Of a DNA stretch of 32,000 nucleotides, positions 422 to 28,399 are shown in pieces. A program made the position numbers and the translations under genes. Source of the stretch: Candidatus Nanosynbacter sp. BB002 (lineage in GTDB: Bacteria > Patescibacteriota > Saccharimonadia > Saccharimonadales > Saccharimonadaceae). The notes beneath the pieces were generated by a model. That model was not told the origin of the DNA. It made no database searches and saw nothing but the letters and a program-made list of their open reading frames with translations. The stretch's first letter is position 1. Every line of letters begins with the position of its first letter. Location of the stretch: contig NZ_CP146064.1 in assembly GCF_037013405.1 (NCBI RefSeq), forward strand, positions 420,001 to 452,000, written 5' to 3'.

Positions 422-423
422 CC

Positions 424-1103: not shown

Positions 1104-1192
1104 CTTATCCTCCATTTCATAGTTGTAAAAACTACATTACTTTTTATCAATTTAGGTATTGACACGGTGTTTTTAGTACCGTGCCACCCCTG

Positions 1193-1699: not shown

Positions 1700-1718
1700 T
1701 GCTTTCTCTCCTTTTGCC

Positions 1719-2443: not shown

Positions 2444-2445
2444 GA

Positions 2446-2793
2446 TCACACCTCTCTGTCGAGCCTTGTCAGCTCAATCTCGACATGCTGTACTGTACCG
2501 CTGGTGACAACCGCTCTACCAACTGCCACATTAGCAACGCGGTACACTCGCTTAACGCCAAACAGCGTCACTTCGGCAAAATATCCCTCGATCGAGTATC
2601 CAGTTGATGACAACCAGCTATCTCGGCCGTCCAGATACGCTCTAGCATCACCTGTCATGGCATCGTAGCTACCGCCGCGGGTCAAGCCACTTGTCTGCTC
2701 GATGACACACTTCACATTGTGCCGCTCGCCTCCCGTCTGGCGGTATACACCGTCTACGGGTGCGACCAAGGTGATGCTATCGCGGAATATCAT
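2446..2793 (-). CDS. Head closure / head-tail adaptor protein (SPP1 gp15-like)
   Basis: Synteny and size fit. ATG at 2793 is preceded by GGAG. Confidence 0.4.
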   Translation of the reverse strand: MIFRDSITLVAPVDGVYRQTGGERHNVKCVIEQTSGLTRGGSYDAMTGDARAYLDGRDSWLSSTGYSIEGYFAEVTLFGVKRVYRVANVAVGRAVVTSGTVQHVEIELTRLDREV

Positions 2794-3427: not shown

Positions 3428-3445
3428 CTCTTACACCCCTCTCTG

Positions 3446-5344: not shown

Positions 5345-5434
5345 GCTTTATTTCCTTGTTAAAGTTTGCTTTCGACTCCTGCTTGCCCGTCCAATTTGAG
5401 CGTTTTGCTCTCGTCTTATTTCTAAGACTACAGA

Positions 5435-7747: not shown

Positions 7748-7951
7748 CTACTTATTACTCCTGTATAAATAAACCGACCAAAATATTAGCTGCACACCGA
7801 CAAATACCACTGTGGCGACCTTGCCGCCATAATATAGCCAAATACAAAACGGCACACCGATGAACATCAGCAGCCCTATCCACGCCTCAATGACAGTGTC
7901 CCTGTCTGGCTTTTGAAACTTTAATTTGCGCAAAAAGTCTTTCAATTTCAT
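7748..7951 (-). CDS. Small two-TM membrane protein
   Basis: 67 aa with two hydrophobic helices. RBS AGAGGA. Abuts the portal start codon. Confidence 0.5.
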   Translation of the reverse strand: MKLKDFLRKLKFQKPDRDTVIEAWIGLLMFIGVPFCIWLYYGGKVATVVFVGVQLIFWSVYLYRSNK

Positions 7952-7978
7952 ATAGTCCTCTAACTGTAAATATACGGA

Positions 7979-9376
7979 TTACATAATTCCGCCCCACTCC
8001 ATCACTACCTCGTGCTTCAGCTGTAGCCAGAGACCCATCAATACAGAGTCGAATATGTCAGGCGATTTGCCGAGCCGCTTCTTGATTGATTCCTTGGATT
8101 CCAACACGAACACCTTGTCTTTGTACTCGTGGTGGTGCATCTGTGCCTCCTTGATAAACTCATTGAGAAACGGAAAGCTCTCGAGTATTTTGACCTTGCC
8201 GCTGTCTAACCCCATCGCCAGCATATACGCCAACTGTGAACGTAAATTATTAAACGCCATCAGCTCCTGTGAACGCTCAGCGTCCTCTCGGCTCTTTGGC
8301 TCGTCGCCAAATGTCAAAAATGGATCAGGTGCAAAGCCGGACTTAAATACCGCAAACTCAGCACCGCGGTCTTTACCGCCATCGATAACACCAACACCAA
8401 CGCCCACGCCGTCAATGGCAATATTCTCATAACCAATCGCGAAGTTATCTGAATGCTCGATCAACCACTCTGCCTGCTTGCCTGTTTCCATCTGCTCGCT
8501 TGAGTCTTTCGTGATACTGCCATCAATCAGTGTCAGGTTCTCCCAGTCTGCCGCCACGCTGCGGTCAACACCATCACGCGCCACGTCGTAGCCAGTCGTC
8601 TTACGTCCTGGATCGTAGCTCTTGACGATTGCCTTGGCGAAAATACTCGAACGGAATATAGTCTTGCTCTCGTCCTGGTATTCCCAGTTATTTTTGAGGT
8701 ACCGCTCAACCCACCATGTCGGGTTGGTCATCATTGCATCGATATCTGATTGCATCTGCCATGAATCAGATAAATCGAACTCGACCACACGAATATTTGA
8801 CGGTAGTGGCTCATACTTGCCGTTTCCGCCATACTTCCAGCGCATATATACCTCTTTAATGTGCTCAACATCGTTTGGGTTTAGGGTGATAATGGCGATG
8901 CTCGGCTGTCCGTTAGTGTTGCGGCGTCCTTTGCGAGATTTAGCCGTGGTAAACATCGTCAGCGACAATTCGTCAGCCTCGTCAATATGGCTAGCGGTAG
9001 CGTTAATACCTTTAATTTTCTGGCCGCTCCTATCTTTTGTCTCGTCCGCCTCCACAAATCCAATCTTTGAGCCGTTAGGGAACTTAATCTCGTAATCTTG
9101 GCCATTGTACGTGTAATCCTCGCCCTCCTTGAAGTTCTTGCGGTCGAGCATAGTCAGGTATGACGGAATCACCGACCGCTTCGCCGTGCTGATATTCTTG
9201 CGAAAAACCGTCCAATATGTCTTCTCAAATGTGTCACAAATATCGATGCCGATACTCGCCGCGATGTCTGTCTTGCCGGTGCCAACTGCACCAATCAAAT
9301 AAATAGTATCGACTTCAGGGCAGTCGTTAATAATATCGACAACGCTTTGCTGCTTCGGCTTTAATTCTAGCGACAT
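7979..9376 (-). CDS. terL: Terminase large subunit
   Basis: Walker A GAVGTGKT and Walker B HIDEADE. A nuclease-like C-terminal half. Located upstream of the portal. Confidence 0.85.
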   Translation of the reverse strand: MSLELKPKQQSVVDIINDCPEVDTIYLIGAVGTGKTDIAASIGIDICDTFEKTYWTVFRKNISTAKRSVIPSYLTMLDRKNFKEGEDYTYNGQDYEIKFPNGSKIGFVEADETKDRSGQKIKGINATASHIDEADELSLTMFTTAKSRKGRRNTNGQPSIAIITLNPNDVEHIKEVYMRWKYGGNGKYEPLPSNIRVVEFDLSDSWQMQSDIDAMMTNPTWWVERYLKNNWEYQDESKTIFRSSIFAKAIVKSYDPGRKTTGYDVARDGVDRSVAADWENLTLIDGSITKDSSEQMETGKQAEWLIEHSDNFAIGYENIAIDGVGVGVGVIDGGKDRGAEFAVFKSGFAPDPFLTFGDEPKSREDAERSQELMAFNNLRSQLAYMLAMGLDSGKVKILESFPFLNEFIKEAQMHHHEYKDKVFVLESKESIKKRLGKSPDIFDSVLMGLWLQLKHEVVMEWGGIM

Positions 9377-9379
9377 GGG

Positions 9380-9925
9380 CTATTCGCCTTTCGTTTTGCG
9401 CGGCTTGATGGTCGATACAATCTTTGGCGGCTGCTTCTCGCGAACATCGACAGACAAATCAACATGATCAACTGGCTTGCCAAAAGCTCGGTCTAGCATG
9501 TCCTTAATAGCTTTGTTGTCTGGCTTCTGCGTGGCGATGAAATAGTACTCGTCATCCACGCCATCAAGCTCACCGTCGAGAAATGCCGCAATCGTTTCGG
9601 GGTCAGTAACTTGCTCAGCCGGTAGTCGATTGCCTTTTCGGTCGGTCTTTATCACAAACAGCAACTGCACGCCCGTCGCCAGTCGGAACTGTGCCTCATA
9701 CAGCTTGTCAGCGTTTCTGGTGATTCGATCCAAAATACGCTGCTTCTCTTTCATACGGTCGAGAACCTTCTGGGTCTTTTTGCCCTTAATTCCGCCGCTG
9801 CCTTTCCTAGCTCCGCCATGAGTTGATGGTGACGTACGTTTACAACCAGCTACATGGATATCGTAATTGTCTTGCCGCTTATACTTTCGGCCGCATTTAG
9901 GACATGATTTGAAGTCATCTTTCAT
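9380..9925 (-). CDS. Putative terminase small subunit with an N-terminal zinc finger
   Basis: Lies immediately upstream of terL. Has a CPKC...H..GC motif and a basic region. The call rests mainly on position. Confidence 0.4.
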   Translation of the reverse strand: MKDDFKSCPKCGRKYKRQDNYDIHVAGCKRTSPSTHGGARKGSGGIKGKKTQKVLDRMKEKQRILDRITRNADKLYEAQFRLATGVQLLFVIKTDRKGNRLPAEQVTDPETIAAFLDGELDGVDDEYYFIATQKPDNKAIKDMLDRAFGKPVDHVDLSVDVREKQPPKIVSTIKPRKTKGE

Positions 9926-9935
9926 GATTATAATT

Positions 9936-10256
9936 CTAGAGATTGACGCGTAGTTCTTTTGGTATTGACTGCTCAGAGACAGATGAAATATACACGCCGT
10001 AACTGTTTGCGATGAGCTGTGCTTGCATGAGAGTCAGGTCTTTAGTGCTTTGTAACTTGCGTAGCATATTCTGGTATGGTTTTTTGTTTCGATCTTGCCA
10101 AGACTGCAAGAGGATGTAGTGCGACAACGGCTTGCATTTTCGCTCATCACCAATAATAATTGCCTGTTTCGAAATATAATAAATGGCGACCTGCCCGATC
10201 TCCTGACGGCGTCGCCTTGTCTTGTCTTGTTTGTCGATTTTTAGCCATTTGACCAT
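9936..10256 (-). CDS. Hypothetical phage protein (first gene of the late module)
   Basis: 106-aa basic ORF. Follows a 150-bp intergenic region containing two hairpins. Confidence 0.5.
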   Translation of the reverse strand: MVKWLKIDKQDKTRRRRQEIGQVAIYYISKQAIIIGDERKCKPLSHYILLQSWQDRNKKPYQNMLRKLQSTKDLTLMQAQLIANSYGVYISSVSEQSIPKELRVNL

Positions 10257-10405
10257 GTTTGTTATCCCTCCTCTACCTCTGAAATATACAGATTAGGCGC
10301 TGGCAATCGCGGCCTCCCAACCGCTCAATCTCACCAGCGCCTAGCTATAAAATGCTTTGACTGTTTTATCAAGCAGTCAAGCGTTCCACTTCAGTCATAA
10401 ACCTC

Positions 10406-11365
10406 TCAATCGTTCGATTGCTCTTGTGATTTCGGCGGAATGACGATCAGCTTGTCAAACGGTAGGATGAATGCTTGACGTCCCAACAGCTGCTTCACTT
10501 CAATCACCGCTTCGCCTCCTTTTATCGCAATCACATCGCCGCACAGCGCCTCTATCGGTTCGTCGCCATGCTTAAATGCAACCCTGTCGCCAACTTTAAC
10601 CCCTGGCGTTTCAGGCTGCGCGCATTTCTCGTCGGCTTGAGATTTAACACCATCAGCAATTGCCTTTGACGCGGCGCTAGCATTTTTAGCTACCGCTTCA
10701 AAAGAGCCAGCGGCAGGCTTCAGCTTCCAGCTCTTGATTCTCAAAACGTTTTTCCAAGTAAACGACCATCGACGACAGCTTTTAACACCGTGATGCATCT
10801 CCGTTTCAATCTCTTCAAGATTCGTGAGACTCAAGAAATACCCTCTACGATAATTGACGTCAAAATTGCTGTCCGAGTAATAAATAGCAGCGCCACTCAG
10901 GTCAGCGTCCCTCAGGTCAGCGTCCCTCAGGTCAGCGCCACTCAGGTCAGCGTCCCTCAGGTCAGCGCCACTCAGGTCAGCGCCACTCAGGTCAGCGTCC
11001 CTCAGGTCAGCGCCACTCAGGTCAGCGTCCCTCAGGTCAGCGTCCCTCAGGTCAGCGCCACTCAGGTCAGCGTCCCTCAGGTCAGCGCCACTCAGGTCAG
11101 CGTCCCTCAGGTCAGCGTCCCTCAGGTTAGCGTCCCTCAGGTCAGCGTCCCTCAGGTTAGCGTCCCTCAGGTTAGCGTCCCTCAGGTCAGCGTCCCTCAG
11201 GTCAGCGTCCCTCAGGTCAGCGTCCCTCAGGTCAGCGTCCCTCAGGTTAGCGTTATCGTCAACAGCTGCTTCAACTGCTTTTTTCATCGTGGCGTTGTCT
11301 GATTCGTACTCAAACAATACATCTCCGCTGAACCATGATTTAATTTCAATTTTTACTTTGGACAT
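10406..11365 (-). CDS. Pentapeptide-repeat protein (24 tandem A[D/N]L[R/S][D/G] units) with a roughly 140-aa C-terminal domain
   Basis: Translation shows uninterrupted [15 protein letters not shown] repeats. RBS AGGAG. Confidence 0.85.
10896..11255. repeat. 24 tandem 15-bp units (CTCAGGT[C/T]AGCG[TCC/CCA]) encoding the pentapeptide repeats
   Basis: Counted directly. There are only three unit variants plus a terminal variant, and synonymous positions are identical between units. Confidence 0.95.
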
Positions 11366-11374
11366 TTTAGTCTC

Positions 11375-11800
11375 CTATTTAGTTATTGATTCGATAAACT
11401 TAATGGCCTCATCACAGCCTTTGCAGACAACAGTCTCAACACCGGCCTCGTTGAGTGTCTTAATCCACTTCTTTTGGTTCCCTGATGTCACGCCTCCTTT
11501 CTTGCGTTTCATTTCGATGAACACCAAGCGGCTAATAGGCTGGTCGTAATCAGCGCTATCGTCGCTATCAAGTGTTTCTACGTAGACTCGTCGTGTTCCT
11601 GTGTTAGGCACAACTACGGCCAAGTCTGGCACACCAGAACTCACGCCAAGCTTCTTATTCTTGATTCGCTGCTTATGGCTTTTGGTATAGGTTTCGTTAG
11701 GTACTCTGAAACGTGGATAGCCGTTATCGTCCAACCATTTAACAAACGCCTCCTGCTCTTGGTCTTCGTATGGATTATCTATGTTTGCGAGATTAGGCAT
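11375..11800 (-). CDS. VRR-NUC domain nuclease
   Basis: Motifs GVPDLAVVV and LVFIEMKRKKGG..S..Q..W. The start at 11800 is preceded by GGAGGAGGA; the longer track ORF has no RBS. Confidence 0.7.
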   Translation of the reverse strand: MPNLANIDNPYEDQEQEAFVKWLDDNGYPRFRVPNETYTKSHKQRIKNKKLGVSSGVPDLAVVVPNTGTRRVYVETLDSDDSADYDQPISRLVFIEMKRKKGGVTSGNQKKWIKTLNEAGVETVVCKGCDEAIKFIESITK

Positions 11801-12068
11801 TTCCTCCTCCTTTCTCTTTAGGCACTCTGTAGCGTATCTGTATTGGCATTCGCCACTCCTTAACCATCCACAATGGATACTGATAAATCTCAAAATACTC
11901 AACAAAGAATCTTTTTCTGATGCGCAATCTTGCGGCAGCGATAGCGTCGTCACGATCCTTAAAGGCAACAACTTCACTAATAGCATTCTTGAGTAGATAA
12001 TCTTCGTTAATATGCGGATTGACTATTCGAACGATATATACAACATCAGAATTAAAGTTTTTTCTCAT
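11793..12068 (-). CDS. Hypothetical phage protein
   Basis: ATG at 12068 follows GGAGG. Its 3' end overlaps the VRR-NUC start by 8 nt. Confidence 0.45.
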   Translation of the reverse strand: MRKNFNSDVVYIVRIVNPHINEDYLLKNAISEVVAFKDRDDAIAAARLRIRKRFFVEYFEIYQYPLWMVKEWRMPIQIRYRVPKEKGGGNA

Positions 12069-12375
12069 ATTTTTCATTGCCTCCAGCCTTGAAGCACTCA
12101 CTCGGCTTCCTCAAAAAGCGTTCGGTGTTCTCGCCATCTTTCATTTCAACCAGCACCTTGGTAACTTTTCGGGTTTTGGATATTACGAAGAGTCCATCAA
12201 GTAGGCGCGTAGTATGTTGCTCCTCGGTTACTCCGCCGGCAACAACAACGCCAAGTCCATATCTGTCGGGATTACTTTTTCTTTCATCTCGATAGGCGAA
12301 ATACACTTTATCGCCGACAGCAAGCCCGTCAAAAGACTGCCGAAACGCCGACTCTTTAAGTTCGATTCTGTCCAT
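12052..12375 (-). CDS. Hypothetical phage protein
   Basis: 107-aa ORF, translationally coupled (TAATG) to the upstream micro-ORF. Confidence 0.5.
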   Translation of the reverse strand: MDRIELKESAFRQSFDGLAVGDKVYFAYRDERKSNPDRYGLGVVVAGGVTEEQHTTRLLDGLFVISKTRKVTKVLVEMKDGENTERFLRKPSECFKAGGNEKYEKKL

Positions 12376-12497
12376 TACTTCCTCCTCTTCTTAGATTCAT
12401 CTAGCCACTCTCGATACTCGATCTCGTCCTCGATTGCTGGCACGATTAGGACTGTTAGTATTACGATTGCGAAAATTACCGCGATTATTATGGTCAT
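12375..12497 (-). CDS. 40-aa single-TM micro-protein (below the ORF-track cutoff)
   Basis: MTIIIAVIFAIVILTVLIVPAIEDEIEYREWLDESKKRRK. ATGA overlap with the upstream stop and TAATG overlap with the downstream start. Confidence 0.45.
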   Translation of the reverse strand: MTIIIAVIFAIVILTVLIVPAIEDEIEYREWLDESKKRRK

Positions 12498-12937
12498 GAT
12501 TGTTTCTCCTCTGGCTTCTTAATTCGCACCAGGCGACAATTTGTAATGTACGTGCCCATAATGCTTGTCCTGTCGCCAGTCTCTAATGCTCTAAGCGCCG
12601 GTAATCCCACGCCACACATCTCTACAATCTGACAGACGATATTAATCTTATTGCCAGTCTCCGCATCTGGATAGACAACCAAAACATAATCGTGCATCCG
12701 CAACTTGTCATCGTCGCCTATTTCCCAATCGTCGTAGGTGAAATGACTTAAAACCAGGTCGCAGCATGCTGCGTGGTTGTAGTTGTAGTCGCTGTGGTCT
12801 AGCGGTTCTTTAACATAATCGTCCCATAGCGGCTGGCCGCAGTTGTGGCACTCTGGACGACCAGCGCAATAGCACAGATCGTGTCCATCGTTGCATGACA
12901 GCGCGCGAGGGTCGCCTCGCTGTTTTATGTCAGTCAT
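12494..12937 (-). CDS. Cys/His-rich hypothetical phage protein
   Basis: 147 aa with clustered Cys (CNDGHDLCYCAGRPECHNC, HAACC). Overlaps the upstream gene by 8 nt. Confidence 0.5.
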   Translation of the reverse strand: MTDIKQRGDPRALSCNDGHDLCYCAGRPECHNCGQPLWDDYVKEPLDHSDYNYNHAACCDLVLSHFTYDDWEIGDDDKLRMHDYVLVVYPDAETGNKINIVCQIVEMCGVGLPALRALETGDRTSIMGTYITNCRLVRIKKPEEKQS

Positions 12938-13148
12938 CGTCCAGCTCCTCTAACCTCTTTTTATTTACGTAGTCAATAAGGCTCTCGTAATCTATGTTCA
13001 TAGTCACCTCAATGCGCGGCAACAGTAGCATAGTCCCGTCAACTCCGCTTCTTGCAATGGAATCAAACTCGAAATTAGCAAAAGCCAAACATGAATCAAT
13101 ATTATCTTTGATGTAGTCTATGACCTGTTTTTGATCAGCCTGCAACAT
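12930..13148 (-). CDS. Hypothetical phage protein
   Basis: 72-aa acidic ORF. First gene after the 650-bp non-coding gap. RBS GAAAGGGA. Confidence 0.5.
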   Translation of the reverse strand: MLQADQKQVIDYIKDNIDSCLAFANFEFDSIARSGVDGTMLLLPRIEVTMNIDYESLIDYVNKKRLEELDDD

Positions 13149-13801
13149 AGTGTCCCTTTCTTCCGTCTAATTTCAACCGCATAACTGGTGGCTATATAAG
13201 GTGATGATTTGCCGAGTTTTAATTTCCTCGAATATGAGGGAATTAGGTTTCGTAAAGTCACATCACACGACATTTTTCCAGCCGATAGCTGCCTTAGTGT
13301 TCATCGTGGTGCTGTCGACAATTCTGTCAGCTTTAATCTCATCAAGCCGTCAAGGATGCAAACCCAAGACGAAAATAATGAGAGAACACGCGTCTACCTA
13401 TTCCGCCACTTATATAGCCATTCAGCAACACCATTTGTAAAGCACTAATATGGTTAATTTGTCTTGATGATGTTGCCAGTTGATAGCACCAAAATATAGT
13501 TGTTTAGAATAGCTATAAATAGGTATACAATTTTTTCCCTAAGTAACAATTAAAGGTGCGTTGGCGCTACCAGTTGAACAGACGATACACGTTACACTGC
13601 GGTTGTATGAGCCGACTCACAACGTTTCACGATTTTTGCCTGACACGCCGGGGTGGGATGGCGTACGGCGGATAAGGAGTTGTGCATATCATCTGTCCAG
13701 TTGAGTAGACGATATGTGGAGGTCGTCTACCCAGTTATGCGGTTGAATTGTTAATGTTCACCCAGTTTTTCGACGTATGGTAGGTCAATGGTAAACAGCG
13801 T
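13149..13801. promoter_or_regulatory. Non-coding region with CCAGTT(G/A/T) iterons and long-range inverted repeats (candidate origin or regulatory hub)
   Basis: CCAGTTGA-type motifs at 13477, 13571, 13698, 13732 and 13763. An exact 17-bp inverted repeat at 13173-13189 and 13732-13748. A 12-bp inverted repeat TGGCTATATAAG at 13190-13201 and 13410-13421. No convincing ORF. Confidence 0.5.
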
Positions 13802-14788
13802 TTATATGTTCATGTTCATCTGCGAGTCGCCATCGATCCGCTTTTTACTGGTTGCGAGATAGTGCGATCCGGTCAGATTGCTATCGACGTAATTGTCGGC
13901 CAAAATATTGACGAACATCATTGCGTCACGGTTATCCATGATGATAATGCCGTCATTATTGTCTGTCATGAGCGCCAAGTTCATTTCGTCAGCATGATCA
14001 ACGACCCTTTGTCGGTCTGGTAGATGTTCAACGTCTAGCTTTAGCAGTGTGTCGGTCAGCGACCTACTATTGTCAGCTAACTCTTCCAACGACAAGCCCT
14101 CTGGGAATGACAACGCAAACTTCTCAGTTAGGTGTTTGGCGATTCGCCTAGTTACAATGTCGCTTGACGGATCTTGCCTAAACAGGTTGACGAACTTTTT
14201 CGGATTGAACGCGAACACTTTGTCGCCGGCGATTAGCACTTGGTTGTCTGCTGGTATTTTGAATGCCGCATCAGCCTTGAGTTCACCAAACTTGCTGCCA
14301 CTGGTCTGCCACGTAAGGCTGCCGCTCAACATCTGCGACCGCTGGAGCTGTTTGGCGACGTAAAAGGTCTTGTCTGGATCCTTTGGATCGCTAAACCGCG
14401 CTACAATACCGTGCATACGCTTCAGTTCGTGTTCTTGATCGTCGAATTGAGAGATGCGATCATCACCAAGGAAATAAACGAGAGTATGAGCACGCTGGAT
14501 GCTTTCAAGCTCGCTGTACATCAGGACATTGTCTATCTGATCGTTTGTTGCATAGTCTTTGATTGACAGTCCAGTCGCTGCTCCGGTTTGAACCGCGTTA
14601 AGTATTTCATAGAGAAATAATACTCGCATCTGCTCTTCCATCTTCTCTGAATCCAATGGCAAGACATATGGTGTAAAGTTTTTGTTGAAAATGAACAGGT
14701 CAATGAGTAGGTCTTTCTTATGTGCGTCAGCCCAGTTTGCCCACTGGAATATGTCGAATTGGTTGTCGTCGATCATTTTTCCCACCAA
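13802..14788 (-). CDS. Hypothetical protein, possibly DUF4868/KwaB-like
   Basis: About 325 aa. The resemblance to DUF4868 proteins is from memory only (for example DKVFAFNPKKFVNLFR). No adjacent KwaA-like membrane gene. Confidence 0.3.
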   Translation of the reverse strand: MVGKMIDDNQFDIFQWANWADAHKKDLLIDLFIFNKNFTPYVLPLDSEKMEEQMRVLFLYEILNAVQTGAATGLSIKDYATNDQIDNVLMYSELESIQRAHTLVYFLGDDRISQFDDQEHELKRMHGIVARFSDPKDPDKTFYVAKQLQRSQMLSGSLTWQTSGSKFGELKADAAFKIPADNQVLIAGDKVFAFNPKKFVNLFRQDPSSDIVTRRIAKHLTEKFALSFPEGLSLEELADNSRSLTDTLLKLDVEHLPDRQRVVDHADEMNLALMTDNNDGIIIMDNRDAMMFVNILADNYVDSNLTGSHYLATSKKRIDGDSQMNMNI

Positions 14789-15012
14789 AATCCTTTCTGC
14801 TCAGCCGCAGCCTCAGGTTGCTTTTCACTATCCTGTAGGCTGCCAGCTGGCTTATTGTTAATTTTTACCGCAATATCCACGCTGCGAACGCCGTGCTCCA
14901 GCAGCCATTTCTTAGCTTTCTTGGCTGCCACCTCTGTTTCGTAGGTTTTCGCGTGCGGCTTGTTTTTGTCGTCACTCCAGCGAACGGTGAATGTGTAATT
15001 CACTAGAGACAT
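14773..15012 (-). CDS. Hypothetical phage protein
   Basis: 79-aa basic ORF. RBS GGAGG. Overlaps the downstream gene. Confidence 0.5.
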   Translation of the reverse strand: MSLVNYTFTVRWSDDKNKPHAKTYETEVAAKKAKKWLLEHGVRSVDIAVKINNKPAGSLQDSEKQPEAAAEQKGFWWEK

Positions 15013-15080
15013 TACGTAGCCTCCAATTTCTTGCGCTTGCGGCGCTGTTTTTTGCGAAGTGCTTTTTTAGTCACGACTCC

Positions 15081-15407
15081 TCAATCTCCAAACCTCTCAT
15101 ACATACAGTTTTCGTGCATGTCTGGATAGTCTTTTCGCTCTGCGTCAGATTGAATGAGCGCCAAATTGCACATACTGCATCTGCCGTACGGTGCGGTTTG
15201 TTCAAATTCAGCCAGCTCGTCATTTTGTTTGGGTCTACGTTTGCTGATCCGTCCGCAAATCCGAGCTGCCTCCCGATTGAGTGCAAAGCCAGTTTTGCTG
15301 CCCCTTGACCTCGATCCGCCCTTTCTGCCGATTTCACGGTAGAAGTTTGGGTTTTTCGCGAGAATTGTTGCGGCAGCTTTTCTGCCGCCGGCTTCCGTTC
15401 CTGCCAT
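15081..15407 (-). CDS. KGG-repeat (stress-induced acidophilic repeat) protein
   Basis: GGRKAAATILAKNPNFYREIGRKGGSRS is typical of KGG-motif general stress proteins. RBS AGGAG. Preferred over the overlapping 15071-15337 frame. Confidence 0.55.
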   Translation of the reverse strand: MAGTEAGGRKAAATILAKNPNFYREIGRKGGSRSRGSKTGFALNREAARICGRISKRRPKQNDELAEFEQTAPYGRCSMCNLALIQSDAERKDYPDMHENCMYERFGD

Positions 15408-15420
15408 GATTCTCCTTTCC

Positions 15421-15879
15421 TTAAAATGGTATTTCGCTCAAATCAATCGGCGCGTCGAGGTCGATATCCTCGGTCGCTTTCGCTGCTTGATTAGTCGTTG
15501 TGTTTGTCGCTTTAGCGTCGGCTTCGGCGTATCGCTCAGTAGCTGGCACAGCGTTATTGCCGCTACCCTTGGCGTCGCTCAAAAACTGGAACTGGTCGAT
15601 GATGACTTCAGTGGCTTTGCGCTTGATGTCGTCCTTCTCCCAGATTCTGGTTTGCAATCTGCCAGTTATGCCAATCTGCTTGCCTTTCGGTGCATATTCT
15701 GCCAGTAGTTCGGCTGCTTTATTCCAGGCAACGCAATCGATAAAGCTAGCGTCGGCATCTTTGCCGTATCCATCAACCGCTAGTGCGAATGAGGCTACGG
15801 ACTTGCCGCTATTCGTCGTTTTGACTTCAATGTCTCGGACGACGCGACCGATTAGAGTTACTGTGTTGATTGCTGCCAT
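15421..15879 (-). CDS. ssb: Single-stranded DNA-binding protein
   Basis: OB-fold N-terminus (NTVTLIGRVVRDIEVK...) and an acidic C-terminal tip DLSEIPF. Confidence 0.9.
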   Translation of the reverse strand: MAAINTVTLIGRVVRDIEVKTTNSGKSVASFALAVDGYGKDADASFIDCVAWNKAAELLAEYAPKGKQIGITGRLQTRIWEKDDIKRKATEVIIDQFQFLSDAKGSGNNAVPATERYAEADAKATNTTTNQAAKATEDIDLDAPIDLSEIPF

Positions 15880-15881
15880 GC

Positions 15882-16688
15882 TCAGAAACTCTTTTCCTCG
15901 CGGATTTCAACACCTGGGATTTCACGTAGCCCATTGGCGATGGCTTCGCGGATTAGTTTGTCGCTCGGCTCACACAAGTAGCGTGGCACTAACTCAGGAT
16001 TGGTAACCGTGAATACCGTTTTCGTTTTAATACCAGACTTGACGGCTGGCTTCTGTGTTTTAGCAGCTTTGGCTGCTTCAGCCTCAGCAATCTCTTGCTC
16101 GCGTTTACGCTGTGCTGCCAGCTTGGCTGCTTCAGCTTCGTCGCGTTCGGCGGTCGTCAATTCGTCTTTACGTGTCAGCAGTTCGTTGATGGCTTTGGTG
16201 AATGCTAGCTTGATTTCAGCATGGTTCTGATCAGCTTCTGGTAGCTCAGCGAATACCTGCTTCAATTCAGCACCTCGCTCATCGCAGGCTTTCTGGCTGC
16301 GTAATGATTTAGCGTTGGTAGCGAACTTGGCGCAAATAGCGTCAACGCGTGCCGCTTCCTGTTTTGCCAGTCGCTCCTGCTCCTCTTGATAAGCCAGAAT
16401 CTTTTGGCTGATATTCTCTAACGCCTCTTCGGCCGGTGCCAGTACATCCTTTTCAGCGTCGATGAATTGTGACTTGACGCTGTCAAAGTTGCGAGTGATC
16501 GCCAGCCGTGCATTCTTGACTTCAGTACGGTGAGAGGTGATCAGCTTGCGGATTGCGACTGCTTCTTTAGCGGTAGTGTCGTCGGTTATCTCTTTAGCTT
16601 TGGCTTGTTCCAAAAGCTCTTGCGATTTGATTTTGAACGGCGATATCGTAGCAACCTGCGAATCGACGTATTCTTGTAGTTGTGACAT
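15882..16688 (-). CDS. Coiled-coil recombination-module protein (DUF1351-like)
   Basis: 268 aa and highly helical. Located between the Sak4-like ATPase and SSB. Confidence 0.35.
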   Translation of the reverse strand: MSQLQEYVDSQVATISPFKIKSQELLEQAKAKEITDDTTAKEAVAIRKLITSHRTEVKNARLAITRNFDSVKSQFIDAEKDVLAPAEEALENISQKILAYQEEQERLAKQEAARVDAICAKFATNAKSLRSQKACDERGAELKQVFAELPEADQNHAEIKLAFTKAINELLTRKDELTTAERDEAEAAKLAAQRKREQEIAEAEAAKAAKTQKPAVKSGIKTKTVFTVTNPELVPRYLCEPSDKLIREAIANGLREIPGVEIREEKSF

Positions 16689-16697
16689 ATTCCTCCT

Positions 16698-17525
16698 TTA
16701 CTTCCTGTCTGCTTCAGATTTACCAAGGCGAGCGCCGGTCATTTCGACGCGTGAGCTTGGAATGGTTGGTTTGGCAGCCGCTTCAATCTGCTCTCGGCTC
16801 GCCAGTGTCGGTGCTGGTGCAATCCACGCGTACTCAGCGTCGCCTCTTACGCCATCGACGATTTTCGTGAAATCTGGCTCGATGTAGCGGCCTAGCCGAC
16901 CCGTGCGGTCTTTGGCAACGTACTTGTCACTAGCTGGATCAACGATAATCAGGCGCTTGGTGTCGCCAGTTTCGGTATCATTGATCGTCGTCATGTAGCC
17001 GACGATATCCACCAGATTGACCAGTTCCTCAGATAGTCTTGTGGCGACCATCGGACGTTTAATGACGCGGCCGTCATCGTCTTTTTCCTGAACGTGAGCC
17101 ACGATAACGATATGCTTACCGCTATCGCGCATGGTTTTCAGAAAGTTTCGCATGGTCGATTTCAGCCAGCCCCAGCCAGCCATGGTCGGGTTGCCGTCGC
17201 GCTGGACCAGTTTACTGTCAGCTCTATTTCGCATATAGGCAATCAACTTCTCCATCAGCTCGCCAATCGGGTCGATAATTACCGTGTCGTAGTCCTCAGT
17301 AAGTGCGATTTGCATGAACTCCTGCATGTCGTCCCATTTTTCGATCAGTGCCACGTCGGCCGCGATACCGCGAAGTCCAAAGTATTTGCTACCATTTTCG
17401 CAGTCAGCGATGATAGGTCGTGGGGCGGTGGCTGCAAACGTTGTTTTACCGACACCGCCCTCGCCATACACAACCATCAGAATTGATGGTTTTTCGGTCG
17501 GATCTAAACTATTAAAGACTCTCAT
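16698..17525 (-). CDS. Sak4-like / AAA_24 RecA-fold ATPase
   Basis: Walker A YGEGGVGKTT and Walker B VIIDPIGE. Synteny with an exonuclease and SSB. Confidence 0.75.
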   Translation of the reverse strand: MRVFNSLDPTEKPSILMVVYGEGGVGKTTFAATAPRPIIADCENGSKYFGLRGIAADVALIEKWDDMQEFMQIALTEDYDTVIIDPIGELMEKLIAYMRNRADSKLVQRDGNPTMAGWGWLKSTMRNFLKTMRDSGKHIVIVAHVQEKDDDGRVIKRPMVATRLSEELVNLVDIVGYMTTINDTETGDTKRLIIVDPASDKYVAKDRTGRLGRYIEPDFTKIVDGVRGDAEYAWIAPAPTLASREQIEAAAKPTIPSSRVEMTGARLGKSEADRK

Positions 17526-17538
17526 ATTCTCCTTTCTT

Positions 17539-18306
17539 TTACAGGCTCCAGTCGCCTAACTCCCTCACCTCCTCGATGAGAAAGTTCGGCTCGCTGTCGC
17601 CAAACTTTATGATCTCGTCGACACACGTACGCAACTTGCGTTCGCCAGCTTCAACAAAATCGATGCCAGCAATCATGAACTGCACGCGGTATGGTGCGAC
17701 GGACTCAACCACACAGTAGGCAAACTTGACTAGCGCCGGGTCTAGCTCTAAGCTTGACGCCGTCACCAGCGTGTAAACTGCTGACTGTAAATCGTAATGC
17801 ATTGACTGTGCGGTTTTGAAAAACTTGTCGAACTTTGCGGTAGTTTTCAAGTCGGTTATCATGGCCGATTCATTAGTGCGAATCAGCACATCAGCCTTAC
17901 CTTTCATATCTACGCCGTCAGCGGTGCGAGCATACATTTCGTGCTCAAAGGTTGCGCCTTTAGCAAAAATGTATTGCTTCGCTAGCGGGTGGTTCTCGAT
18001 ATTCTTCAAAATCTGATCAGCAGCCTTGAACATGCCTAAAGTGATGATGTGTTTGCCAACAGCTTTCTGTTCGTTACGCCACGCCTTTGATTCTTTCGAG
18101 TAGAAGTTCTCAAACGGACTGATGGCGAATTGATCCTCGCCGCCGAGTATCAGCATGTGAACCAGCTGCCCCAAATCGATAGCTTTGCTGTCTAGGTCTG
18201 GCAAGTCTCCGCGTTTAGCTGCAACTGCATAATCGATACCGTGATCGAGAATCAGCTTCATTGACGAATATGACCACTCTGGTCGGCTATAGTAAGCGTC
18301 TGCCAC
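17539..18306 (-). CDS. PD-(D/E)XK phage exonuclease (RecE/DUF3799-like)
   Basis: Motif GKADVL...ITDLKT...YDLQSAVY. GTG start preceded by GGGGGAGG. Confidence 0.65.
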   Translation of the reverse strand: MADAYYSRPEWSYSSMKLILDHGIDYAVAAKRGDLPDLDSKAIDLGQLVHMLILGGEDQFAISPFENFYSKESKAWRNEQKAVGKHIITLGMFKAADQILKNIENHPLAKQYIFAKGATFEHEMYARTADGVDMKGKADVLIRTNESAMITDLKTTAKFDKFFKTAQSMHYDLQSAVYTLVTASSLELDPALVKFAYCVVESVAPYRVQFMIAGIDFVEAGERKLRTCVDEIIKFGDSEPNFLIEEVRELGDWSL

Positions 18307-18376
18307 TTACGCCTCCCCCGCCAAAGCTCGGTCAAGAAACGTCGGATCGATTAGGTTTTCCAATTTTTCAAACAAA

Positions 18377-18577
18377 CTATTTTCGTCCATAAAACTTGCC
18401 CTCAATCCACTTCATACCTTTGTCAAAAATCCGCAGCCACTTCGCTGCTTTGACCGACTTATCGAAGTCGTGGTCATTCAACTCGCGTAGCTTGTCAATC
18501 ACCCTGTCAAGTGGCTCGCGCTTATGCACCGACACCAGCTGAACTGGTGACGGCATCACGTTTACGTGTATCTTCAT
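18377..18577 (-). CDS. Hypothetical early protein
   Basis: I chose the internal ATG at 18577 because AGGAG lies upstream. The longer track ORF overlaps the upstream gene by about 100 nt. Confidence 0.45.
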   Translation of the reverse strand: MKIHVNVMPSPVQLVSVHKREPLDRVIDKLRELNDHDFDKSVKAAKWLRIFDKGMKWIEGKFYGRK

Positions 18578-18579
18578 CG

Positions 18580-18783
18580 CTAAATCTCCTTTCGCGATTT
18601 TAATTCTTGTATAGCTTCGTCGAACGCACCGTTCACAAACAGCACAATTGCCAGAACCGCGATTGCTACGAACTGCACCCACCAGAGACGCAGATCTGTT
18701 GGCTCGCTGATTGCGATTATCGCGGCTGGTAGTCCAACTACCCAGCTAATGATTTTTTTGATCTGTTTGTTTTTCGCTGCCAT
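18580..18783 (-). CDS. Small two-TM membrane protein, first gene of the early operon
   Basis: 67 aa with two hydrophobic helices. RBS AAAGGAG. Confidence 0.5.
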   Translation of the reverse strand: MAAKNKQIKKIISWVVGLPAAIIAISEPTDLRLWWVQFVAIAVLAIVLFVNGAFDEAIQELKSRKEI

Positions 18784-18992
18784 TTTTCAGCTCCTTTCGT
18801 TTTACGTACAAGAGTGCTCGCAGTCACTCTCGTACTGTTAGATATCTCGTCTCTGTCGTGTTTTAAGCGGTTTGTAGTCCGCTGTCTCTAATTTCTGACC
18901 AGCTGTTACTCAAATCTCTAAAAACCCGCTCTGACGTTTCAATGAAGCTACAAACGCTGAACGTACAGGATTTCTAGCCTCATTTTTACGTC

Positions 18993-19023
18993 AAATAAAA
19001 AAGAATCGACGCGAAGTCGATTC
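18993..19023 (-). terminator. Rho-independent terminator (minus strand)
   Basis: 8-bp perfect stem GAATCGAC/GTCGATTC with a 5-nt loop, followed on the minus strand by TTTTTTATTT. Confidence 0.7.
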
Positions 19024-19205
19024 ATGGTTGATAGATTTAACTAACAGAGGTAGTCGCTGTTTATATCATGTAAGATTATTTCGTGATTTATATATATCAG
19101 CTTTTGCACATGCAGAGGCCGGCGTTTCGCCTGGAGCCACCAGGCTGGAGACGCCCCACTCCGCGGAGAATAGCCTTTCTCCGCCCGACTCCAGAAGGAG
19201 TTATC

Positions 19206-19664
19206 ATGAGCGAGGGAGACATTAGATGTGGCGACAACTGCATTTTAAGGCGGCTCTCCAACGGATAGCACTATGTGACAACACCAAGTGAGGCCCCCAC
19301 CGGATCCAGTGTGTATGAGTGCAATTTCGATTCAGACTTGAGATATCAGATTCTGTCTCATGGTACGGTCGTGATTCACCGTAAGTCTCAGTGCCCGTCC
19401 TGCCAAGGGCGATCTAATAGCCCTCTTAGAGAGTCTGGTCAGTTTGACGGCAGAAGTGCGGCTGTATACCGTTCTCCCGGCACAACCAACATACTCTACG
19501 GCGGCAGGAGCGGTAACACTCCTGACGATGGCCATGGCCATGTCAGAGCAACAGGCGGCCCCACTGGTGAGAACATCGTATTCTGGAGACTTCCAGAGGA
19601 CGAAGGCGGTCAGACGATCGTCGACAACTCGTGGGACGTTACTGGAGGTAATGATCTGCGATGA
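19206..19664 (+). pseudogene. Cassette 1 small protein (split zinc ribbon plus GHGH-motif core), interrupted by an in-frame TAG at 19266-19268
   Basis: The ATG at 19206 has RBS AAGGAG. The same frame continues through the TAG into the 19275-19664 ORF. The core aligns with cassette 2. Confidence 0.55.
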
Positions 19665-19748
19665 CAGAGCTTAGGCTCTGGAACCATTGACCCGGACAAG
19701 TCATAAAACTGTCCATACTTCTTAAATGTAGGTTATAATCATAGGACT

Positions 19749-20150
19749 ATGAAAAATAGCATCAAATTATCTTTGCCAAAGTTTATAACCGAGGCTTTCC
19801 CTGTTCTTGAAGACGCAGAATATATACGCTCTTTCGCAGGACTTTTTATATTGTACCCAGATACCCAATTCTATTTATTCCAAAGCGCAGGCCACGATTC
19901 ACTACGCTCATTTATCCTTGTTGCTACGGACTATTCTGACCCGTTTGACCAAAGCTACGAATTAAAGGAGATGACAGGTAAATACGAGTTTGAGTTTACG
20001 CGTATTGTCGCTCCATATAGAAATAATAAGTTCATAGAACTTCGCCAACATGACGATATGGAGGCAGGTTACGACATACGAGATCCTCATGGGAATTGGT
20101 GCTACTATTTAACGGAGGCGACATACAGGCCAGATTGGGTGGAGCGATGA
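19749..20150 (+). CDS. Cassette 1 partner protein (immunity-like, acidic, 133 aa)
   Basis: Paralogue of 20702-21085 (shared EAFP, PDT, TDY, G.YEFEFT, PY...IE.R). Own TATAAT at 19734-19739. Confidence 0.7.
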   Translation: MKNSIKLSLPKFITEAFPVLEDAEYIRSFAGLFILYPDTQFYLFQSAGHDSLRSFILVATDYSDPFDQSYELKEMTGKYEFEFTRIVAPYRNNKFIELRQHDDMEAGYDIRDPHGNWCYYLTEATYRPDWVER

Positions 20151-20374
20151 TCGATAGCGTCTTTATAGAATGAGTTTCATACAATTCACTCCTCAGGTAC
20201 ATAAATCAGACCACCTTCATCAGCGGAAGTTGTCACCCAACTGCTCATAATCTCATCATAATAAGATTCAAATACTTGCTTATTCTTTATTTCAGCTCCT
20301 CCCCAGCTAGTATGAATGAGGGAATTCCCACTTCGCGGAGAGTATTTCCCTGCCCGACTCCAAGAGGAGTTATC

Positions 20375-20639
20375 ATGGAGCAACGCGGCCGCTTTGACGG
20401 AAGAGAGGCAAAGATCTATCGGTCCGGAGGAATGATCAATATCTACTACGGTGGTAGGTAGATAACATTCCTAACGATGGCCACGGTCATGTGAAAGCTA
20501 CAGGTGGCCACTTAGTGAAAATATCGTCTACTGGCGACTACCTACTGATGAAGGAGGCAACACCATAATAGACAACAGATTCACGACCATGAATGGCAAC
20601 AATCTGAGACTAGATGTCTATCTGACCGGCCTATATTAG
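20375..20639 (+). pseudogene. Cassette 2 GHGH-motif protein, degraded (TAG at 20459 plus two 1-nt deletions)
   Basis: Nucleotide alignment to 19431-19664 needs frames 2, then 1, then 0. The reconstructed peptide is RFDGREAKIYRSGGMINIYYGGR/NIPNDGHGHVKATGG/ENIVYWRLPTDEGGNTIIDN. Confidence 0.65.
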
Positions 20640-20701
20640 GCCAACAGACATGGATAAGTCATAAAACTGTCCACTTTTCTTGATATAATTAAGGTTGCTG
20701 T

Positions 20702-21085
20702 ATGAATAATTATTCAAATATCCTATTTCCGGAAATAATCAATGAGGCTTTTCCAATTATCAATGATGCGTCGTATGTTCGCCAGCTGGCGTCGCTTATA
20801 CCACTCTGTCCTGATACGGCATTTCATCTGTTTGCTGATAAAAATGGATCCTTCTTCGCGCTAGTAATGACTGATTATCCCAACCCCACTAATCAGAGTG
20901 TAGAGCTCAAACAGATTTCCGGAGAATATGAATTTGAATTCACCAACCTCGTCAAGCCGTATACCGACGATAAGTATATAGAAGTTCGTGAGAATGATGA
21001 GATGAATGAATCGTTTTCCGTTCCAGATCCGAATAGTTATTATCATTATTATCTGGCAACAGTGAAGCAAAAGCTGAACTGGTGA
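20702..21085 (+). CDS. Cassette 2 partner protein (immunity-like, 127 aa)
   Basis: Paralogue of 19749-20150. Extended -10 TGATATAAT at 20681-20689. Confidence 0.7.
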   Translation: MNNYSNILFPEIINEAFPIINDASYVRQLASLIPLCPDTAFHLFADKNGSFFALVMTDYPNPTNQSVELKQISGEYEFEFTNLVKPYTDDKYIEVRENDEMNESFSVPDPNSYYHYYLATVKQKLNW

Positions 21086-21088
21086 TAG

Positions 21089-21664
21089 CTAGTCCACAGC
21101 AGACTGTCGCCTTAACACATGCTGTTGCAGCCAGCAATACATCGCTACAGTCGCTGCCGCGCCGACATTGATGGAGCGGGTCGAGCCAAACTGTTCAATG
21201 GCCACTATCTTGTCCGCCGCCTGTGCCATCTCCTCAGAGATCCCTGGGCCTTCTTGGCCAAACACTAGCACCGCACGCTCTGGTAAGCTCGTCTCCGCCA
21301 TATTGACACTGCTTGGGATATTGTCAATCGCAATAATCTCCCTGCTCTCCTCACGCATCTTCTCAACAAATTCTTCTGTCGTCGCCAAATATGTAATGTG
21401 CAAATATTTATCCGTCATCATGGCACCTCGCTTGTTCCACTGCCGCCTGCCGATGACGTAAATCTGCCGCACACCAAACGCATTGGCACTCCTGACGATA
21501 GTCCCCATATTAAAATCCCGCTCGGTGTTCTCCAGAGCAATCACCAAGCCGTGATCCTTGGCGTCCAGCTCCTTTACGATCTCCGCCTCACTCCGACCTT
21601 TGAATTTGTCAATCACATTTCGAGTATCTTGCATCTCTGTTATTGTAGCAAAATCATCAAACAA
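21089..21664 (-). CDS. SpoU/TrmH-family RNA 2'-O-methyltransferase
   Basis: Motifs NMGTIVRSANAFGV, LVFGQEGPGISEE and STRSINVGAA. Confidence 0.8.
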   Translation of the reverse strand: MFDDFATITEMQDTRNVIDKFKGRSEAEIVKELDAKDHGLVIALENTERDFNMGTIVRSANAFGVRQIYVIGRRQWNKRGAMMTDKYLHITYLATTEEFVEKMREESREIIAIDNIPSSVNMAETSLPERAVLVFGQEGPGISEEMAQAADKIVAIEQFGSTRSINVGAAATVAMYCWLQQHVLRRQSAVD

Positions 21665-21686: not shown

Positions 21687-21715
21687 TTGACTTTTTAGCA
21701 TAAGTGTGATATAAT
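21687..21715 (+). promoter_or_regulatory. Near-consensus sigma70-type promoter
   Basis: TTGACT, a 17-nt spacer ending in TGA, then TATAAT. Confidence 0.65.
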
Positions 21716-21781
21716 GAAAATCAGCTTTCGTTGATGAGTTGAGTAAATCCTTGTCCAAAAGTGAACTTTGACAGGCAATCG

Positions 21782-21844
21782 AATACAAGATGAGGTTTTA
21801 TTTCTTTTTTGAACGCTAAGAGAGATAAAATCTCATCTTGTATT
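21782..21844 (+). other. 24-bp-stem hairpin in the 5' leader of 21906-22307
   Basis: AATACAAGATGAGGTTTTATTTCT pairs with AGAGATAAAATCTCATCTTGTATT (two G-U pairs) around a 15-nt loop. Confidence 0.7.
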
Positions 21845-21905
21845 GTAAAGAACAGTACTTCACTGCACACTCGCAGAGATGAGGATCGAAGACGAGGAGA
21901 GTATC

Positions 21906-22307
21906 ATGTCATCAGATGACATTGCCCGCGAAGTTATCACCCTGGATGAAACGTGGCACAAAGTTGTCACTCTAGTATGCAAGGAGGGGTATGCTTCAAT
22001 GTTCCAAGTTAGGCGGTTCATCCATCTCATTAGAAGCTTCACTGCGTGCATAGAAGATTTGGAGACATATGTCGAGAATCATCTCTCCACAGGTGATATC
22101 ACTGACGACGTCGATGACGTTGTGATGGCGTTTGAAGCGGTCGATCGCTTCATCCAAAGGCATATCGCCCTATCCAAAGAGGATCTGTCACTATATAGAT
22201 CTCTGAAGAGCGAGATGGAAGACCACCTCCTTCACCTCCTCTATCTAGGAGAGGAGGTGAAACTCGATGATGGGCTACTGCTCGTCATCTGCGTCCCCAC
22301 CCACTAA
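21906..22307 (+). CDS. Acidic helical hypothetical protein (133 aa)
   Basis: ATG at 21906 is preceded by GAGGAGAG. The track start at 21879 lacks an RBS. Confidence 0.55.
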   Translation: MSSDDIAREVITLDETWHKVVTLVCKEGYASMFQVRRFIHLIRSFTACIEDLETYVENHLSTGDITDDVDDVVMAFEAVDRFIQRHIALSKEDLSLYRSLKSEMEDHLLHLLYLGEEVKLDDGLLLVICVPTH

Positions 22308-24945: not shown

Positions 24946-25032
24946 TGGTACGGATGAGAGGACTTGAACCTCCACGTTCTTGCGAACACTAGCACCTGAA
25001 GCTAGCGCGTCTACCAATTCCGCCACATCCGC
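24946..25032 (-). tRNA. tRNA-Leu (anticodon CAG), CCA encoded
   Basis: Hand-folded. Acceptor GCGGATG/CATCCGT, anticodon loop TTCAGGT, long variable arm, T arm GGAGGTTCAAGTCCTCT. Confidence 0.85.
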
Positions 25033-28314: not shown

Positions 28315-28399
28315 TGGTGCGGATGAAAGGACTTGAACCTTCACGCCGTGAGGCATATGCTCCTAAGGCATACGTGTCTACCAATTCCACCACATCCGC
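28315..28399 (-). tRNA. Island-borne complete tRNA-Leu (anticodon UAG), CCA encoded
   Basis: Hand-folded. Acceptor GCGGATG/CATCCGC, anticodon loop CTTAGGA, long variable arm. The T arm is identical to that of the split host gene. Confidence 0.85.

Follow-up and report, generated by a model that had tools for sequence, protein, structure and literature searches.

Polymorphic toxin-immunity systems with orphan modules, such as CdiA-CT/CdiI, Rhs, LXG/type VII and MafB, were reportedly defined by Zhang, Aravind and colleagues, and they are among the closest described relatives in kind of a gene array that we analysed in the oral Saccharibacterium Candidatus Nanosynbacter sp. BB002 (NCBI RefSeq assembly GCF_037013405.1, contig NZ_CP146064.1). 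Within the 32,000-nucleotide (nt) stretch studied (positions 420,001 to 452,000 of the contig; hereafter the window, numbered from its first letter), the array consists of two head-to-tail paralogous units, 19206-20150 and 20375-21085. Each unit holds a small gene whose product is named after its GHGH motif, broken in both cases, followed by an intact gene for an acidic partner of ~130 amino acids (aa). As in polymorphic toxins, variable C-terminal domains are found behind a conserved N-terminus, a small and putatively cognate immunity gene lies directly downstream, arrays contain degraded or displaced remnants of the candidate toxin next to retained orphan partners, and horizontal spread, including on an integrative element, is indicated. 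Unlike them, the GHGH protein measures only 80-155 aa as a whole, many members being a bare C-terminal domain, no secretion, trafficking or repeat domain is recognised in it, neither family is represented in Pfam or NCBIfam, and what is exchanged as a unit extends to a promoter and a structured RNA leader.

Colicin and pyocin operons provide a second comparison. There, too, the gene next after the toxin codes for an acidic immunity protein, which has its own promoter and is hence always present, and which is retained in strains that have lost toxin production; the array differs in having no receptor-binding or translocation domains, no lysis gene and no SOS box, and its toxin candidate is itself acidic, with no nuclease or pore-forming domain detectable. 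The general kind of system, toxin-immunity cassettes with orphan immunity, is thus a known one. New with respect to the libraries and literature searched are the predicted GHGH toxin fold, the partner family and the promoter-plus-leader RNA module, as are the lack of a recognisable delivery domain and the setting in ultra-small epibionts; the literature on toxins and immunity in Saccharibacteria and Patescibacteria yielded no earlier description of the cassette. The original prediction, made from the letters of the window, was a toxin/immunity-like array of an unrecognised family. It gained support throughout, and neither protein matched any non-conflict family. We consider it likely that the GHGH protein and its partner are a toxin and a neutraliser of some kind, and we favour, if only tentatively, a toxin acting between cells with the partner as population-wide immunity.

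All parts of the proposed architecture, that is tandem paralogous two-gene units, broken GHGH genes and intact partners, were present in the sequence, and both units share the core motif as it had been written (Table 1; L-labels denote genome loci compared, P-labels database protein entries). The partners are homologous, at a measured identity of 42% (BLASTP E 1e-39) rather than the ~45% first estimated. The long-form gene of unit 1 encodes a Cys-rich N-terminal domain (~19206-19409) and a GHGH beta domain (~19434-19628, with GHGH at 19530-19541), and is interrupted, as had been read, by an in-frame TAG at 19266-19268, which is codon 21 and Gln/CAG in intact relatives. The search for an intact full-length homologue led to 152-aa orthologues in the closest relatives (L012-L019 and L027-L029). 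A GTG at 19275, 6 nt beyond the TAG, opens a 129-codon open reading frame (ORF) that retains the entire GHGH domain, and residual expression through re-initiation at this codon may occur. Early TAGs arose independently in three GHGH genes (window 19266, L030 ~2555, L074 ~2680); in two of these a possible restart codon comes right after the TAG, as with the GTG in L030, and leaves the ORF of the GHGH domain whole. A database entry of 117 aa with 22 member sequences (P0003) corresponds to such a restart product.

The short-form gene of unit 2 is readable only across frames 0, 2 and 1 in succession, and alignment with intact orthologues placed one 1-nt deletion at 20460/20461 and another after 20507. 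Both deletions had been noted originally; the TAG at 20459-20461, counted as a further lesion at the time, turned out to be created by the first of them. This first deletion was found in all eight close relatives examined and the second only in L013 and L019, so that copy 2, as judged from the alignment, decayed through an old frameshift common to relatives and then through a second, younger one. These lesions also bear on the possibility that the similarity of the units is due to chance or misassembly and the broken frames to sequencing errors, which is extremely improbable. The TAG at 19266 is strain-specific, with CAG in the closest genomes L013 and L027, as an error would be. In contrast, the frameshifts of copy 2 recur in independently assembled relatives, the partners resemble each other at the E value given above, and the cassette, at more than 160 independent loci, is far beyond chance. 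Because its lesions are common to independent assemblies, an artefact is excluded for copy 2 at the level of sequence comparison. The GC content was 55% in the window's core gene region, 41% in the partner and 47% in the whole window.

Table 1 Coordinates of the array, its expression signals and related features (window numbering unless a locus is named)
Feature	Position	Strand	Remarks
Prophage/chromosome junction	19085-19096	+	Inside unit 1 promoter; alignment with L012, L014, L019
Unit 1 structured 5' leader RNA	19096-19205	+	~110 nt; RNAalifold, covariance model
Leader hairpin 1	19100-19119	+	RNAalifold
Leader hairpin 2 (nested)	19121-19155	+	RNAalifold
Leader hairpin 3	19163-19184	+	RNAalifold
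Leader hairpin 4	19187-19202	+	ACUCC pairs with Shine-Dalgarno GGAGU
Unit 1 long-form GHGH gene	19206-19664	+	152 codons; ATG 19206, AGGAG 19196-19200, stop TGA 19662-19664
Unit 1 inverted repeat	19694-19714	+	GGACA-N11-TGTCC, between GHGH gene and partner 1
TATAAT -10-like hexamer	19734-19739	+	9 nt before partner 1 ATG; would give near-leaderless transcript
Partner 1	19749-20150	+	133 aa, isoelectric point (pI) 4.8, intact; proposed immunity protein/neutraliser
Unit 2 leader remnant	20282-20374	+	Only the last two hairpins (~20327-20371) conserved; own promoter absent
Unit 2 short-form GHGH pseudogene	20375-20639	+	ATG 20375; GHGH 20479-20490; original stop 20637-20639
Unit 2 inverted repeat	20652-20672	+	GGATA-N11-TGTCC
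TGATATAAT extended -10-like element	20681-20689	+	TATAAT 20684-20689; 12 nt before partner 2 ATG
Partner 2	20702-21085	+	127 aa, pI 4.4, intact; proposed orphan immunity protein/neutraliser
SpoU/TrmH-type methyltransferase gene (trmH)	21089-21664	-	Convergent right boundary, outside cassette; PF00588 on orthologues
Alternative ORF of divergent GHGH subgroup	L022 5243-5569; L190 3244-3594	-	Conserved, 108-116 aa
Loci with small-ORF types B-D behind the same promoter/leader	L101 2297-2567; L078 1829-2099; L043 232-445; L052 1814-2036; similar loci

The asymmetry between the two genes extends well beyond the window. A census with the partner profile returned 82 partner copies in 80 species-representative genomes, all of them Saccharibacteria or Nanosynbacter and mostly oral. 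All partner copies except one were intact (81/82), and their upstream neighbour was an intact GHGH gene in 31 cases, a GHGH gene broken by frameshift, nonsense codon or 5' truncation in 19, a different small ORF in 10 and no such gene in 20, the remaining two lying at a contig edge. Thus, an intact upstream GHGH gene was absent for 51 of the 82 partners (49 without one, 2 at a contig edge). The GHGH lesions are many and independent, comprising frameshifts, nonsense codons (window, L030, L074) and 5' truncations (L076, L085, L093 and L100, among others). The ratio of nonsynonymous to synonymous substitution rates (dN/dS) had a median of 0.127 in orphan partners and of 0.126 in partners beside an intact GHGH gene; by this measure, the orphans are not decaying. 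The earlier claim that immunity-like partners outlive their toxins is in keeping with both the counts and these ratios.

Co-occurrence of the two genes in other genomes had been set beforehand as a test of the proposal. Scanning metagenomes with a GHGH profile retrieved 80 loci with 83 GHGH copies, and every one of these copies (83/83) had a partner homologue within 450 nt downstream. The linkage is strict in one direction only: a GHGH gene implies a partner, whereas a partner does not imply a GHGH gene. The pair also occurs in Streptomyces sp. NBC_01235 (L020/L021 1-10252), where a GHGH gene, whose product is 62-65% identical to the Saccharibacteria proteins, stands before a gene for a partner homologue of 127 aa (37% identity, E 2e-17). 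Both genes lie inside an integrative conjugative element together with a resolvase, DUF3846, a TraB/FtsK-like translocase, Replic_Relax, an excisionase-like helix-turn-helix (HTH) protein and an integrase, which suggests, from sequence, transfer of the cassette between epibionts and the actinobacterial phylum of their hosts. A divergent GHGH subgroup (Microbacterium L022, and L190 from a genome of 49% GC) has no partner homologue and instead has a conserved, convergently transcribed helical ORF of 108-116 aa with the motifs ALEAPG and FELR, which may represent an alternative neutraliser family.

An exhaustive hidden Markov model (HMM) search combined with a profile search recovered ~130 GHGH relatives, nearly all of 75-155 aa, including proteins of Streptomyces sp. 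NBC_01235 and two Microbacterium strains. They come in two forms, a bare domain of ~80-88 aa (P0009, 88 aa) or the same domain behind a Cys-rich N-terminus of ~65 aa (P0001 and the proteins of L012-L019, 152-154 aa). The core follows the consensus FDG..A.V...(x)..[IV].[VIF]YYGG...PDG.GHGH[VI]......I.YWRLP..EGG..[VI]ID; both His were invariant in 104 sequences, and F, YGG, the glycines flanking the two His, V, I, WR and P nearly so. Intact GHGH domains are under purifying selection (median dN/dS 0.18). An AlphaFold2 model showed a six-stranded all-beta core with a predicted local distance difference test (pLDDT) score of 83-93, the N-terminal ~70 residues being of low confidence. An active or metal-binding site is probably made up of the invariant His-x-His, the nearly invariant Trp-Arg and the conserved EGG segment. 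Giant fibronectin-III repeat proteins that appeared in the exhaustive HMM search were discarded as spurious, owing to a short W..P..GG motif.

Neither the 104 family members (Pfam, NCBIfam and PADLOC) nor the four proteins of the window (the same libraries and PHROGs) gave a meaningful match; sequence profile searches of the PDB returned chance matches only, and Foldseek found none in the PDB or BFVD. The speculation that the motif belongs to a beta-beta-alpha-metal nuclease found no support. No helix follows the GHGH strand in the all-beta model, the Asn of 'IVDN' is not conserved, the HNH clan was not matched and the protein has an acidic pI. Distant relatives of 343-435 aa (P0065, P0067, P0070, P0084, P0183, P0185) combine a long coiled coil, a DUF1771-like segment and two tandem GHGH domains. 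They resemble DUF1771 (PF08590) proteins in that GHGH occupies the place of the Smr nuclease domain, to which DUF1771 is normally N-terminal, and differ from DUF1771/Smr proteins in that GHGH is all-beta, without similarity to Smr, and present in tandem; the window proteins contain no DUF1771. In L107 (5184-6242), a tandem-GHGH gene stands among restriction-endonuclease-like genes and is followed by a 105-aa ORF with a faint, not significant resemblance to the partner.

The N-terminus of the long form is exchangeable. Over residues 1-65, the window protein shares 66% identity (E 1e-30) with an L033 protein of 155 aa whose C-terminal domain is of another family ('type B'); downstream of it come two further small ORFs and then an orphan partner, which has the same palindrome. 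A third N-terminus is joined to the GHGH domain in P0005. A kinship of the type B small proteins with the GHGH family was considered and dropped, hhalign finding none. No Pfam or NCBIfam match was obtained on any N-terminus of a GHGH protein, and short forms have no N-terminal extension. Cys-rich extensions with CxxC-type motifs occur in many members (P0034, P0038, P0063, P0064, P0115, P0143, P0147), the window long form having cysteines at C8, C12, C39, C63 and C66, and these cysteines are probably zinc-binding. At the other end, short GHGH proteins (for example P0035, P0108 and P0120) terminate in a conserved tail, [DE].L..H[LM][ST]..[FWL]-COOH. Long forms, ending at GNDLR, lack this tail, which could act as a signal for recognition or export or else touch the partner.

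For the partner, 11 family members had no meaningful match in Pfam, NCBIfam, PADLOC or PHROGs, and no DNA-binding family was detected; a poor structure model gives, tentatively, the element order alpha-beta-beta-beta-alpha-beta-beta. The palindrome and the -10 that had been described before each partner were located where expected. The inverted repeat, GGAYA-N11-TRTCC, was found at 49 of 50 partner copies with an upstream GHGH gene or remnant versus 1 of 20 stand-alone orphans, and its arms co-vary, L093 having GGATA/TATCC. The repeat may serve as an operator or as a 3' stem-loop, and nothing links an operator role to the partner. Of 81 partner copies, 67 have a TA[TCG]AAT hexamer 6-16 nt ahead of their ATG; these include 17 of the 20 stand-alone orphans and not one of the 10 copies placed behind a type B cassette. 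A generic sigma-70 scan missed both TATAAT boxes of the window because no -35 accompanies them. The hexamer fits an independent, nearly leaderless partner transcript, with co-transcription as a second route.

Upstream of the GHGH gene, the shared leader with a Shine-Dalgarno (SD) sequence, originally put at ~50 nt, is real and in unit 1 extends to ~110 nt. RNAalifold on 20 non-identical full leaders gave four hairpins with 35 pairs, 9 of them with compensatory double changes. In this alignment, 98.9% of cells were paired, falling to ~50% in slid controls, and the covariation was reached by none of 500 column shuffles. The unit 1 leader has a minimum free energy of -59.1 kcal/mol (z = -5.5). 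In the window, a covariance model detected only the two expected copies (unit 1, 133.7 bits; unit 2, 39.8 bits); across 50 Saccharibacteria loci it detected 57, and Streptomyces, Microbacterium and the other distant loci examined had none, so that among these loci the leader is confined to Saccharibacteria. Like SD-sequestering leaders (type I toxin mRNAs such as tisB/hok, RNA thermometers, translational riboswitches), it ends in an anti-SD hairpin before a presumably harmful gene and has a structure backed by covariation; unlike them, it found no match in Rfam (18800-21200, E up to 1) and has three further conserved hairpins upstream. From this structure, we infer that the leader would limit translation of the small gene.

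The last 22 nt of the leader, GACTCCARRAGGAGTTATCATG, precede four types of small ORF: type A is the GHGH family, type B is Gly-rich (SFGxG...GHTLI...HDHYG), type C, of 71 aa, has the appearance of a highly diverged GHGH protein, and type D is basic with 74 aa. The same promoter and leader stand before at least four small-ORF types, three of them without evident mutual similarity, and each type has its own small acidic ORF downstream. Types B, C and D had no match in Pfam, and scans of the alternative small ORFs with NCBIfam, PADLOC and PHROGs likewise gave no meaningful match.

These associations also help to weigh whether the GHGH protein is toxic at all. It might instead be a metal-binding, adhesive, host-directed effector or regulatory protein, with the partner as a chaperone or in an independent role, and loss of the small gene would then reflect dispensability or antigenic or host-range variation rather than self-harm. 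An acidic, Gly-rich, all-beta protein with an invariant HxH would fit metal binding, the tandem domains behind DUF1771-like coiled coils point the same way, the partner is conserved whatever the state of the small gene, and its size, pI and element order, the last from a poor model, recall secretion chaperones. A chaperone, however, should decay after loss of its client, whereas orphan partners are fully constrained, and neutralisation specificity is the better fit to the one-way linkage, with a partner behind 83 of 83 small genes, to the private downstream ORF of each alternative small-ORF type and to the different dedicated partner of the divergent GHGH subgroup. We regard a non-toxic role as unlikely.

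A toxin acting inside the cell that makes it is possible, though on balance doubtful. Here, the locus would be a toxin-first toxin-antitoxin module for addiction or stress, in which the GHGH protein poisons its own cell and the partner is an antitoxin kept in excess by its internal promoter; orphan partners would be anti-addiction genes or would neutralise paralogous toxins encoded elsewhere in the genome. Gene order, protein sizes and the extra internal promoter are indeed those of toxin-first type II modules (higBA, hicAB, mqsRA, brnTA), toxin-first order and the separate partner -10 being conserved, and the proteins are small and without a secretion signal. Such modules also reside on mobile elements and in multiple copies, as do the Streptomyces pair, which adjoins transfer and integration genes, and the cassettes of several genomes that hold more than one locus, and a buried ribosome-binding site is what a gene in need of silence would be expected to have. 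In contrast to type II modules, there is no similarity to RelE, HicA, MqsR or MazF folds, the predicted GHGH fold being all-beta, no known toxin or antitoxin family was matched, and the partner has no recognisable HTH, ribbon-helix-helix or other DNA-binding domain. Moreover, orphans constrained as strongly as paired partners in many species are poorly explained by anti-addiction alone, and an exchangeable N-terminus on unrelated C-termini, together with arrays of displaced cassettes, is typical of exported polymorphic toxins.

We favour a toxin that acts between cells, with immunity across the population, on three grounds: the orphans are constrained, the N-terminal domain has been swapped and the cassettes form arrays. 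Since orphan partners are intact and under purifying selection in most species, a toxin that also arrives from outside is the preferred assumption. As read from sequence comparison, one-way linkage, asymmetric decay, constrained orphans and N-terminal swapping are signatures of polymorphic toxin-immunity loci. Under this favoured reading, the small all-beta GHGH protein would harm bacterial cells, its domain acting bare or behind the exchangeable Cys-rich N-terminus, and the downstream partner would neutralise it, most likely via direct binding. With two sources, the bicistronic transcript and a separate -10 near its start codon, the partner would be kept in excess, while the structured leader, its last hairpin burying the SD sequence, would restrain translation of the toxin. 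External toxin might come from rival epibionts or possibly from Actinobacteria, which carry homologues, and the partner would then serve the whole population as immunity. In the window, both putative toxins would be disabled, with both immunity genes persisting.

Several observations weigh against this interpretation. GHGH proteins, whose short forms are the GHGH domain alone, showed neither a signal peptide nor any known domain for secretion or trafficking. The GHGH pI of 4.6-5.7 is unusual for nuclease toxins and offers no charge complementarity to the acidic partner, tandem GHGH domains behind a coiled coil would be no less suited to a binding module than to an enzyme, the structure model of the partner is unreliable (pLDDT 52), and a census by partner is blind to loci from which the partner has been lost wholly. 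As to delivery, the host lineage is not known to have a T5, T6 or T7 secretion system (types V to VII). A locus resembling a T4SS (type IV) has been reported for it (PMC7427843).

The genomes of Saccharibacteria and other ultra-small epibionts are tiny, and to our knowledge the competition among epibionts, superinfection exclusion and damage to actinobacterial hosts are largely unexplained. A protective half that stays under selection after loss of the harmful half would point to toxins circulating among Saccharibacteria in the human mouth. The locus would contribute three new parts, namely a predicted toxin fold with an invariant HxH, a putative immunity family and a structured leader that is possibly a regulatory switch, and the cassette could mark gene exchange between epibionts and Actinobacteria. 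A more far-reaching scheme is speculative and, taken as a whole, rather unlikely: an exchangeable strong promoter with a four-hairpin, SD-masking leader would drive at least four types of small protein, one being the GHGH domain as a new toxin fold, delivered to rivals or host without a classical secretion signal, the partner would be a new family of population-wide immunity, and the cassette would be shared horizontally with the host phylum, as suggested by the integrative element of Streptomyces. On this scheme, no interbacterial toxin-immunity system would have been described earlier in the Candidate Phyla Radiation. Genetic tools exist for related strains, so these predictions are directly testable; strain TM7-008, used in PMC13622651, itself carries a locus of the cassette type.

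Finally, we considered the genomic setting. Window positions 1-18800 are a prophage encoding portal, terminase, protease/capsid, Sak4 and exonuclease. The array does lie between the prophage end and trmH, as originally placed; any implied tie to the prophage did not stand. Prophage-free close relatives have the order hisS, 152-aa GHGH gene, partner 1, broken short GHGH gene, partner 2 and trmH, and in another species a single intact cassette (88 aa and 127 aa) sits between hisS and trmH. Because these relatives hold the same array between the same genes, it is, on this comparison, native chromosomal DNA, at which the phage arrived later. The cassette was not found in IMG/VR viral contigs, GenBank phages or PLSDB plasmids, and for both reasons prophage cargo was rejected. 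Homology to the prophage-free relatives starts at ~19089 (ATATATATCAGC...), phage DNA having taken the place of unit 1's own -35 (TTGACA) and of the TG in its extended -10. In ~40 loci, the leader is preceded by the promoter TTGACA-N17-TGATATATAT, and as homology starts inside this promoter, the phage removed the -35 of unit 1. An identical junction occurs in the GTDB species representative L027 (2330-2348), yet its 152-codon GHGH gene is intact; therefore, the prophage insertion is older than the TAG of the window, which is a later, strain-specific event. By this alignment, copy 1 lost its -35 to the prophage and afterwards acquired the nonsense codon.

At the other end, the stop codon of partner 2 ends at 21085 and the convergent trmH stop begins at 21089, leaving the predicted gap of 3 nt; reassignment of the stop codon was rejected because trmH itself terminates in TAG. 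Terminator-like hairpins on the minus strand lie at 19003-19023, in the prophage end just upstream of the junction, and at 20211-20226, in the spacer between the units. The best sigma-70-like promoter of the region (21687-21715; TTGACT-17-TATAAT with TG, 11/12 matches) is located just beyond trmH and is followed by a leader of ~160 nt (21716-21878) and an ORF (21879-22307). Further downstream are two tRNA-Leu genes on the minus strand, at 24946-25032 and 28315-28399, with anticodons CAG and TAG.

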